61,670 nt of DNA from Escherichia phage 933W. Below, in pieces: positions 27,001-30,000 of the stretch; position 1 is the first letter of the stretch; each line of letters starts with the position of its first letter. Made by a program: the position numbers. The DNA is taken from the sequence record AF125520, one strand, 5' to 3'.

Positions 27001-30000
27001 TCAACTATAACGGAAATCGTTATGGTTGCTGAGGATGGGAAACAACGCAATATGGTGTCCATGCCACTTCGAAAACTTGCCGGCTGGCTACAAACCATTA
27101 ATCCCAACAAAGTAAAACCCGAAATCCGCGATAAGGTCATCCGGTATCAGGAAGAGTGCGACGATGTTCTTTACGAGTACTGGACGAAGGGTTTTGTCGT
27201 TAATCCCCGTAAAATGAGCGTGATGGAAGAACTCAACCAGGCTTGTGCTGACATGAAACGGGATAAAAACATTGCCAGTGTGTTTGCTACCGGGCTGAAT
27301 GAGTGGAAACAGGTTAAAGCCGCGCATGTATCAAAAATCCGTACGCTGGTAAATGAAGCGAATATGCTGATTGATTTTGTCCTGGCTGATACAGGCAAAG
27401 GGAAAATAACAAAGGCGGATTGATGGGGTGGCTAATGATATCAGATAAACTCATAACGCTGGTGAAGAGCCTCTGTGTACTTGTCGGCATTTCATTTTTA
27501 GTCATGCTGGTTGCCATTTTCTTTTCCACCGCCTGGCGAGTCCTGACGTTATCGGGACTGGTGGGGTGAAAGAGAGATGAACCGTGTTCTGTGTGTGGTG
27601 ATTATTGTCCTGGCGGTTGGCTATGGTGCGCTGTGGCTGGCAACAAACCATTACCGTGACAACGCGCTCACCTACAAAGCGCAGCGCGATAAAAAAGCCA
27701 GAGAGCTGGAACAGGCGAATGCCACCATTACTGACATGCAGGTGCGCCAGCGTGATGTTGCTGCGCTCGATGCAAAATACTCGAGGGAGTTAGCCGATGC
27801 GAGAGCTGAAAATGAAACTCTGCGTGCTGATGTTGCCGCTGGTCGTAAGCGCCTGCGGATCAACGCCACCTGCTCCGGTACCGTGCGTGAAGCCACCGGC
27901 ACCTCCGGCGTGGATAATGCAACCGGCCCCCGACTGGCAGACACCGCTGAACGGGATTATTTCATCCTCAGAGAGAGGCTGATCACTATGCAAAAACAAC
28001 TGGAAGGAACCCAGAAGTATATTAATGAGCAGTGCAGATAGAGTTGCCCATATCGATGGGCAACTCATGCAATTATTGTGAGCAATACACCCGCGCTTCC
28101 AGCGGAGTATAAATGCCTAAAGTAATAAAACCGAGCAATCCATTTACGAATGTTTGCTGGGTTTCTGTTTTAACAACATTTTCTGTGCCGCCACAAATTT
28201 TGGCTGCATCGACAGTTTTCTTCTGCCCAATTCCAGAAACGAAGAAATGATGGGTGATGGTTTCCTTTGGTGCTACTGCTGTCTGTTTGTTTTGAACAGT
28301 AAACGTCTGTTGAGCACATCCTGTAATAAGCAGGGCCAGCGCAGTAGCGAGTAGCATTTTTTTCATGGTGTTATTCCCGATGCTTTTTGAAGTTCGCAGA
28401 ATCGTATGTGTAGAAAATTAAACAAACCCTAAACAATGAGTTGAAATTTCATATTGTTAATATTTATTAATGTATGTCAGGTGCGATGAATCGTCATTGT
28501 ATTCCCGGATTAACTATGTCCACAGCCCTGACGGGGAACTTCTCTGCGGGAGTGTGCGGGGATAATCAAAAACGATGCACACCGGGTTTTCTCATTTTTC
28601 ACGAGATGGGAGCGATTTCCCGCGAAGCCGCCTGTCCGGTGCGGTGGTGGAAGAAACCGGATAAAACAACCGCATTGTGCAAATATCGATCAAATATGGT
28701 GCTGCTGTGTGAAATCTGAAAAATCACAGCGGTCATTATGCATCAGTTTTTAACACAGGACGTCAGAACGTGACATGGCAAAGCTGGACTGGAAAAAGCT
28801 GGAGCAGGCATTCCGACGCGAACATGCCGAAACGGGAATAACATTACTGGACTGGTGCCGGAAGAAAAAGATTAATTACAACACCGCCAGAACCCGTATA
28901 AAAATGGGCAAAATCGATCATGAAATTGATCATAAAACCGATCATGAAATCGATCATGACATCTCAGATGAAGAACCCTGCAATGACGCGGGTTCCGGCG
29001 ATGAAAAATGTGCAAAAAACTCTGAAAAAAACTGCGCAAATTCGGCAGAAACGAAACGGATTCGTGGTTCCCGACTTTTACCACCTTCAAACGCTTTTTC
29101 TCAGCGAAACACCCACGCCGTAAGACACCGTGGATATGCGAAGTATCTTGAGGCAGATAACCTCATGGATGATGCGTCCGACATGGTGCTGTTCGATGAA
29201 CTGGTGTTCACCCGGGCCCGCGCACTTTCAGTAACTAAGGCACTTAAAGGGATGTTCGCCGACCTGGAAGAGGCAACTGACGTGGAAACCCGTGTTGCTC
29301 TTTACGACAAAATACTCAAAGCTGAACAGGCCCTTGACCGGAATATTGCCCGTATCGAGTCAATTGAACGCTCATTGCTGACGCTGGACGTCCTGGCTGA
29401 GACAGCACCAAAACTTCGTGCTGACCGGGAAAGAATCAACGCCGCCAGAGATAAACTCAGAGCTGAAACCGATATTCTGACCAACCAGCGTCGGGGCGTT
29501 GTTACGCCTGTCAGTGACATCGTGTCATCGCTGCATGAAATGAGTAATTCGGGGAGACTGGATGACATTCCGGAAGAATGAACCGCGATGTGATGAGCCG
29601 TCAGAAATGACCGAGGCTGAACAACGTCTGTTCATCATGACTAAACTGAGCAATCCCTGGTGGCGGCTCAATCATCTCTACAAAATACAGAACGAAAAAG
29701 GTGAACTGGTCACCTTCAGAATGCGACCGGCGCAGCGCCAGTTGTTCCGGAGCATGCACAATAAAAATATTATCCTGAAAGCGCGCCAGCTGGGATTTTC
29801 CACAGCCATTGATATTTATCTTCTCGACCAGGCATTATTCATTCCGCATCTCAAATGCGGGATCGTCGCTCAGGATAAACAGGCTGCCAGTGAAATTTTC
29901 CGCACAAAAATTGCTGTACCGTTTGATCATCTCCCTGACTGGCTGAGAGCCTCATTCACCATCGTTGAACGTCGTAGCGGTGCCAGCGGTGGCTATATCC

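Follow-up and report, generated by a model that had tools for sequence, protein, structure and literature searches.

The window analysed here is the whole 61,670-nucleotide sequence of Escherichia phage 933W (AF125520), a Shiga toxin 2 (Stx2) phage of the 933W/phi24B type. Its small-terminase gene, terS, contains four tandem 12-bp units, each built around a GATCAT core, which are proposed below to be the array that the small terminase (TerS) recognizes on phage DNA. The elements that matter for this proposal are the following.

28775..29581, + strand: terS, small terminase of 268 amino acids (phrog_370 'terminase small subunit', E=4.8e-125; annotated terS in identical phage records).
28790..28897, + strand: region coding for the predicted N-terminal three-helix helix-turn-helix (HTH), residues 6-41, with helix 3 = NYNTARTRIK (AlphaFold2 model, profiles).
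28830..29024, + strand: putative specificity cassette, comprising HTH helices 2-3 and the array; about 50-60% identical to PhiR12_3, with flanks about 95% identical (sliding identity, alignment).
28913..28960, + strand: four tandem 12-bp units, proposed TerS recognition array (direct reading, Tandem Repeats Finder).
29009..29038, + strand: two copies of the commonest motif of the relatives, TGTGCA at 29009 (TGCGCA in most 933W-type alleles) and TGCGCA at 29033.
29026..29057, + strand: block of ~32 nt, AAAAAACTGCGCAAATTCGGCAGAAACGAAAC, invariant between 933W-type and PhiR12_3-type alleles in an otherwise variable linker.
29562..31268, + strand: terL, large terminase (phrog_2, E=1.2e-53), its start overlapped by the end of terS.

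The units read, in order along 28913-28960, ATCGATCATGAA, ATTGATCATAAA, ACCGATCATGAA, and ATCGATCATGAC. Each of them carries the GATCAT core and with it a Dam site, the GATC tetramers starting at 28916, 28928, 28940, and 28952; written as YGATCA, the elements are CGATCA, TGATCA, CGATCA, and CGATCA, spaced by 12 bp. Tandem Repeats Finder calls the repeat at 28911-28963, with a period of 12, 4.4 copies, and a score of 78. All four units lie in frame 0 of terS, where codons 47-62 give IDHE IDHK TDHE IDHD, and the array begins five codons past helix 3 of the HTH, with A-rich spacers (GAAA/AAAA) in units 1-3. An earlier note on this DNA had described four tandem GATC-containing 12-bp units with this in-frame periodicity and this peptide, inside a putative small-terminase gene. 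The units, their frame, and their period are confirmed by direct reading, by the repeat call, and by the open reading frame (ORF) at 28775..29581, and the match to phrog_370 and the adjoining TerL establish the host gene as that of a small terminase.

The arrangement GATCAT-N6-GATCAT, with at most one mismatch, occurs three times in the window, always within the array, against an expectation of 0.34, and none of 100 shuffles reaches three. The array is also the densest GATC cluster in the window; four GATC sites in 48 bp were reached by 28 of 200 shuffles, which carried a higher, unbiased GATC count. The 12-bp periodicity is significant, and the clustering of GATC is without significance of its own, because any tandem repeat clusters its own tetramers.

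In the AlphaFold2 model of TerS, built on 37 homologues, the HTH comprises helices 6-20, 24-31, and 35-41, with a predicted local distance difference test score (pLDDT) of 73-86. The linker that follows (residues 45-116) is predicted to be disordered, with pLDDT of 31-36 over the repeat segment, and long helices spanning residues 130-238 form a coiled-coil body with pLDDT >90. As modelled, 933W TerS thus consists of an N-terminal HTH, a flexible linker, and an oligomerisation core, as in headful phages whose pac, the packaging site, is embedded in terS. Since the linker is predicted to be disordered, the repeat would encode a segment under little structural constraint. Pfam has no family for 933W TerS or its TerL. 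A Foldseek search of TerS against the PDB gave nothing beyond coiled coils of a generic kind, the best at E=0.2 and HK97 TerS at E~1; a profile search of PDB sequences with TerS gave no meaningful match and no solved homologue.

The same position in the gene is occupied by different words in the relatives of 933W TerS. Diverged relatives (30-75% identical) have no GATC repeat, but another short DNA word is repeated in the array slot: TGCGCA, seven times, in PhiR12_3 (TerS 74% identical), and GTACGCA, five to seven times, in Klebsiella phages (TerS about 30% identical). In 20 further lineages taken from genome contigs of Citrobacter, Serratia, Yersinia, Brenneria, Pectobacterium, Aeromonas, and Xenorhabdus, TGCGCA or TTCGCA is present three to eight times in the linker, usually at intervals of 9-14 bp within a cluster, and is nearly absent from the rest of the gene. 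The most distant homologue, from Pseudoalteromonas, is without any repeated motif. Single arrays of the relatives use two or three reading frames, so that the word is read as TGC-GCA (Cys-Ala), as G-TGC-GCA-AA (Val/Leu-Arg-Lys), or as xxT-GCG-CAA (x-Ala-Gln). When each linker was rewritten 4,000 times with synonymous codons, keeping the peptide, and the motif copies were counted, the recoded linkers of the relatives held on average 0.3-0.9 copies versus 5-7 observed; the observed count was reached by 0/4000 recodings in most lineages, with P=0.0005-0.0008 in two. Because synonymous recoding rarely or never regains the observed motif count, the arrays of the relatives are constrained as DNA and not as peptide.

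The identity of the repeated word follows that of the recognition helix. Viral contigs searched with the N-terminal 48 residues yielded 57 distinct N-termini, which are phylogenetically non-independent. Helix 3 of the form ARR(Y/H)IK is accompanied by TGCGCA arrays of 3-10 copies (45/45 sequences), AKRYIK by TGCGAA(T)/ATTCGCA (5/5, one of them weak), and ARTRIK, the 933W type, by GATCAT (7/7). The pairs ARRYIK/TGCGCA and AKRYI/TTCGCA recur on unrelated TerS bodies, with Terminase_2 (PF03592) bodies in Klebsiella ST846phi9.2 and Providencia PSTCR3 and the 933W-type body in the Pectobacterium and Aeromonas proteins. The simplest reading of this pairing has the HTH binding the array, with helix and array evolving or moving together; as far as the sequences go, the tracking of motif identity with the recognition helix implies base-specific recognition. 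The 933W lineage would then be one in which both partners have changed, the recognition helix to ARTRIK and the core to GATCAT.

Such an HTH-plus-array cassette, with at least three cores of 6-7 bp that are about a helical turn apart and start no more than ~10 codons past helix 3, is defined in the present analysis, and no description of it was found in the literature searched. The 933W array, with four cores at a 12-bp period, the first of them five codons past helix 3, has this layout. It matches the cassettes of other 933W-type and some Terminase_2 proteins in its slot, its period, and its succession of a 6-7 bp core and an A-rich spacer, and shares with them the HTH scaffold MAKxDW...WC...Y.TAR..IK and the coding context of a disordered linker. 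It differs in the GATCAT core and the ARTRIK helix, and in that its copies are identical, tandem, and in one frame, whereas those of the relatives are diverged and in several frames. Among the variants compared, it alone has Dam sites.

Within the 933W lineage, the number of units varies, as natural alleles have 1, 2, 3, 4, 5, or 7 of them. Four units are by far the commonest, with 351 of 388 E. coli records at least 99% identical across the region; three-unit alleles make up about 5-15% of records, a five-unit allele heads a 57-member protein cluster, and the alleles with 1, 2, and 7 units are singletons. The GATCAT core is unchanged in all alleles with 3-7 units for which DNA was compared, including one whose TerS is only 88% identical. 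Differences between units among alleles are confined to positions 2, 3, 10, and 12. At their synonymous third positions, the codons for Asp and His are constant in every unit of every allele, while the flanks vary. GATCAT-N6 arrays in terS of other phage groups were also considered and were dismissed, since among more than 120 matching viral contigs only the 933W-like ones have the array in terS; the remaining contigs carry unrelated tandem repeats, many in metagenome-assembled genomes of giant viruses.

Among known packaging sites, the closest counterpart is that of phage P1. The P1 small terminase, PacA (phrog_1711), matches the 933W TerS profile phrog_370 over residues 3-104 (E=1.9e-4), and the N-terminus of 933W TerS matches phrog_1711 in turn (E=1.4e-6; BLASTP E=0.009). 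The similarity is weak and limited to the N-terminal ~90-100 residues, the rest of the protein being unrelated (397 amino acids in PacA versus a coiled-coil protein of 268 in 933W), and PacA residues 10-44 give sub-threshold matches to Pfam HTH_23/HTH_28. Both phages have their own adenine methylase (in 933W, the PF05869 gene), and both are generalized transducers with headful packaging. The pac of P1 is a 161-bp segment of pacA with seven TGATCA/G hexamers, which carry Dam sites. It is bound in the hemimethylated state and cleaved in the methylated one, and packaging falls about 9-fold when the hexamers are recoded synonymously (PMC10028697). The Dam-regulated pac with HEX4 and HEX3 goes back to Sternberg & Coulby, in the summary of their work given there. 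The annotated cleavage sites and the site for integration host factor (IHF) lie between two TGATCA/G clusters just past the PacA HTH. HEX4 corresponds to pacA codons 65-77, and the P1 hexamers are mostly encoded as Asp-His/Gln.

The two sites are alike in lying inside the small-terminase gene shortly after HTHs that are distantly related, and in having four closely spaced GATCA-core elements with Dam sites that code largely for Asp-His/Gln (Asp-His in 933W). They differ in that P1 has two clusters (4+3) ~100 bp apart, flanking the IHF site and the cut sites, whereas 933W has one, and in that the P1 hexamers are irregularly spaced (7, 12, and 15 bp) and in two frames, while the 933W units repeat in tandem, in one frame, at exactly 12 bp. 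The P1 site is proven to depend on Dam; by analogy, the 933W array may do so too.

In the accepted picture of SPP1 and SF6, terS has direct repeats at its start, and weak HTHs arranged in a ring wrap the bendable DNA (PMC4737164). Their boxA/boxB/boxC repeats share with the 933W array the location of direct repeats at the terS 5' end, a TerS built of an HTH and an oligomerisation core, A-rich bendable DNA, and headful packaging. Their TerS belongs to a family other than that of 933W, and the SPP1 repeats span the promoter and the gene start, whereas those of 933W lie in the internal linker. Packaging sites formed by repeated motifs within terS are of a known kind (P1, SPP1), to which 933W would add one that consists of a lone run of exact tandem units, in another TerS family.

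That 933W packages by a headful mechanism is taken from the literature and not from the sequence itself. The phage transduces chromosomal markers efficiently by generalized transduction, and the ends of its virion DNA were not sequenceable, which was interpreted as terminal redundancy (PMC3752737); its TerL defines the clade 'headful (933W type)' (PMC7317114). The start points of deposited genome records were considered as a clue to the termini and set aside, since starts at terL or terS appear to follow an annotation convention.

From these comparisons, the four GATCAT-core units are probably the TerS recognition array of the 933W lineage, that is, the recognition part of its pac, overlaid on linker-coding sequence. 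The anatomy of the locus, the DNA-level constraint in the relatives, the covariation of HTH and motif, and the distant HTH homology to P1 PacA are the computed features that point this way, and from them we infer binding of TerS to GATCAT and a packaging cut near the array. In the mechanism that we envisage, TerS would be an oligomer with flexible N-terminal HTH domains. On concatemeric DNA, several of these would engage the cores, which recur every 12 bp with A-rich spacers between them. Their binding would nucleate the TerS-TerL complex, and TerL would make the first cut nearby, after which headful packaging would proceed. Because the array sits in codons of a disordered linker, the DNA signal could be laid over the coding sequence at little cost to the protein, and the recognition helix and its cognate array would travel and diverge together as a cassette. 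We can tentatively extend this to a portable cassette, consisting of an N-terminal HTH and a cognate array in the linker codons, that would set pac specificity across 933W-type TerS, Terminase_2, and P1 PacA, the 933W/Stx lineage having switched to the Dam-methylatable GATCAT; this wider proposal is a good deal less secure than the reading of the array itself.

Several observations weigh against a packaging function of the array. In the recoding test, the 933W linker gives P=0.08, which is not significant, as four or more GATCA are found in 8% of the recodings. Its cores, plainly the products of recent tandem duplication, all fall in one frame, which makes the argument from several frames inapplicable, and the array shows neither the use of several frames nor the excess over the peptide that the cassettes of the relatives show. 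The linkage of helix and array in the close 933W/PhiR12_3 group needs no explanation beyond their adjacency, and the range of one to seven copies among 933W-type alleles is what would be expected of a slippage-prone coding repeat. No second GATC cluster is found near the array, the next sites being 28688 (not conserved) and 29861, and no match to the IHF consensus WATCAANNNNTTR with at most one mismatch is present at 28700-29300 on either strand. The isolated DNA-binding domain of SF6 TerS has little specificity for the pac repeats (PMC4737164), so the presence of repeats near terS does not by itself imply base-specific contact. The literature searched for a pac site, mapping of termini, or TerS binding of 933W, phi24B, or Sepvirinae yielded none.

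Some of these points can be qualified. The proven pac of P1 fares no better in the recoding test (P=0.07), so the value for 933W is no evidence against function; the test is underpowered for GAT-CAx cores. While the SF6 domain has little sequence specificity, motif identity in the 933W-type proteins tracks the recognition helix. With one cluster, no IHF-like site, and an unrelated TerS body, the 933W site is not a full P1-type pac. The suggestion in the earlier note that the repeats could be a packaging DNA site as well as a coding repeat gains comparative support from the DNA-constrained arrays of the relatives, from the HTH-motif covariation, and from the P1 hexamers with their GATCA core, but the 933W sequence itself, with its single frame and its P=0.08, cannot separate selection on DNA from selection on peptide.

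The alternative that this last point brings forward is a pure coding variable-number tandem repeat (VNTR), in which slippage expanded an I/T-D-H-E/K/D unit in a disordered acidic linker and GATC is an accident of the GAT-CAT codon pair. The real pac would then lie elsewhere, for example outside terS or in the stretch 29009-29057, which holds the TGCGCA copies and the conserved block. The 933W array has three features of a coding VNTR, namely an in-frame 12-bp unit, a copy number that is polymorphic among close alleles, and low predicted order, all of which are also compatible with a pac array. The VNTR explanation accounts for a single frame and a period that is a multiple of three, for alleles with 1, 2, 3, 4, 5, and 7 units in a segment predicted to be disordered, and for the frequency with which recoding restores the GATCA count. 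It also agrees with the widespread occurrence of unrelated GATCAT 12-mer tandem repeats in other viral contigs, and with the retention of one or two TGCGCA copies and of the invariant downstream block in 933W-type alleles. It does not account for an array that fills the exact slot of the DNA-constrained arrays of the relatives and is strictly paired with a distinct recognition helix, ARTRIK, nor for third positions of Asp and His codons that never vary while flank positions do. Moreover, 3-5 units are frequent among the alleles, those with 1, 2, and 7 being singletons, and the 12-bp unit is laid out like that of PhiR12_3, with a 6-bp core followed by an A-rich spacer. On balance, we regard a pure coding repeat as rather unlikely, and a recognition array as the preferred reading.

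The presence of a Dam site in every unit raises the role of methylation, for which the phage itself encodes a candidate enzyme.

16823..17350, + strand: Dam-family N6-adenine methyltransferase, candidate modifier of the GATC array (PF05869, E=1.2e-64; putative Dam in the phi24B annotation).

In the whole window, GATC is strongly depleted: base composition predicts 239 sites and dinucleotide shuffles give 247 +/- 15, whereas 157 are present. The phage nonetheless carries the methylase gene at 16823-17350. By analogy with P1, host or phage Dam methylation of the four GATC sites might modulate binding or cleavage of the array, a possibility that we hold with some doubt. The sites could also belong to a DNA element other than pac, such as a hemimethylation-dependent site (e.g., for SeqA) or a Dam-dependent switch, with TerS recognizing something else; an element of this type could time the expression of terS and terL or keep phage DNA sequestered just after its replication. 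SeqA prefers hemimethylated GATC pairs that lie close together, and the array, the densest GATC cluster in a GATC-depleted genome, has its four sites one helical turn apart in a phage with a Dam-family methylase. Dam is reportedly needed for stable 933W lysogeny (Murphy et al. 2008, as cited in PMC10073500). In the relatives, however, the slot holds non-GATC motifs, so its conserved property is the HTH-matched repeat and not methylation, and the site lies 140 nt into the coding region rather than at a promoter. The link between Dam and lysogeny is, moreover, usually attributed to SOS induction in dam mutants. An element of this kind therefore seems improbable.

The peptide itself could also be what is selected, if the Asp-His-Glu-rich units were metal-binding or charge-patterned, for example for interaction with TerL or the portal. 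His, Asp, and Glu are typical metal ligands, and the D-H pair is constant in every unit while the neighbouring residues vary. Near-identical TerS bodies and TerL proteins nevertheless occur with wholly different linker peptides (AQK/SAQ, GTQ), the segment is predicted to be disordered, and its copy number is not fixed, and we consider a functional peptide very improbable.

Downstream of the units, the copies of TG(T/C)GCA at 29009 and 29033 are read as Cys-Ala, in a frame that differs from that of the xAQ copies in the relatives; they are possibly residual or auxiliary TerS sites. The block at 29026-29057 stands out from its surroundings, with 29/30 identity between 933W and PhiR12_3 at 29025-29054 compared with 13-18/30 in the flanking windows. 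It includes TGCGCAAA and encodes the peptide NCANSAETK, and it could be part of pac (e.g., the cut region) or a conserved peptide. Taken together, the ancestral-type copies and the invariant block (29009-29057) may contribute to recognition or mark the cleavage region. Upstream, a lone ATCGATCA at 28685-28692, the same 8-mer as in units 1 and 4, is found 228 bp before the array, in the small ORF that precedes terS. It was considered as a second arm of pac and rejected, as an 88%-identical allele that retains the array does not conserve it; neither does PhiR12_3.

Phages of the 933W type carry Shiga toxin genes and perform generalized transduction in enterohaemorrhagic E. coli, and no mapped pac was found for them in the literature searched. 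A defined 48-bp array would allow the construction of pac-plasmids, with which transfer mediated by Stx phages could be measured or blocked, as well as the prediction of pseudo-pac sites in host chromosomes, and it would allow one to ask whether host or phage Dam gates packaging. How TerS gains sequence specificity is still debated (PMC4737164), and the strict pairing of helix 3 with TGCGCA, TGCGAA, and GATCAT would offer a natural recognition-code series for small terminases. If the proposed switch to GATCAT is true, it would give Stx phages a P1-like epigenetic control of the start of packaging through their own Dam.

The genes around the array are arranged in the order Rz, bor, small ORF, terS, terL, and portal, according to PHROG, Pfam, and the annotation of identical records, with the portal following terL directly.

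31268..33412, + strand: portal protein (PF16510 P22_portal, E=1.4e-128).

Stx2-converting phage I, phi24B, and many O157 prophages match the 1.1 kb around the array at 100% identity, and the array region is present in 387 of 5,426 complete E. coli genomes. In some prophages, similarity is lost at ~28951-28966, and a mosaic joint at the repeat was considered and rejected, the break being due to an IS3-family (IS629-like) insertion sequence (IS) right after the array. The prophages concerned are ~50-kb Stx2a prophages (LC7278xx JNE series), with the IS3-family element at 28966/28967 (L003, from ~3367 onward) and an IS629-like end, TGAACCGCCCCGGGTTTCCTGGAGAG. This insertion truncates TerS after the array, and the JNE-series prophages are presumably packaging-defective. 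A second divergent patch in terS, at 29055-29114 (IRGSRLLPPSNAF versus NSRSGNPHPVARF), assorts independently of the HTH/array cassette (alleles P0004, P0005, and P0016), which indicates fine-scale mosaicism within terS. The C-terminus of 933W TerS is also encoded, with 99% identity, by a 368-bp contig of a Xanthomonas pisi assembly (NZ_JPLE01000258.1; L026), which is most likely contamination by E. coli or phage DNA.

Three other repeats occur in the window. At 13903-13980, four ~20-bp repeats (CATCCCnCAAAACGAGGGA; alternatively 2 x 39 bp) resemble the iterons of a lambdoid replication origin. A 45-bp tandem duplication at 39534-39624, GGx-CCx-rich, resembles the collagen-like Gly-X-Y coding repeats of a tail or fibre gene. 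Close to the end of the window, at 61458-61544, a 31-bp unit (TGTTTGGGGCACTATTGGGGCAAAATGTGGT) is repeated 2.8 times with 96% matching.

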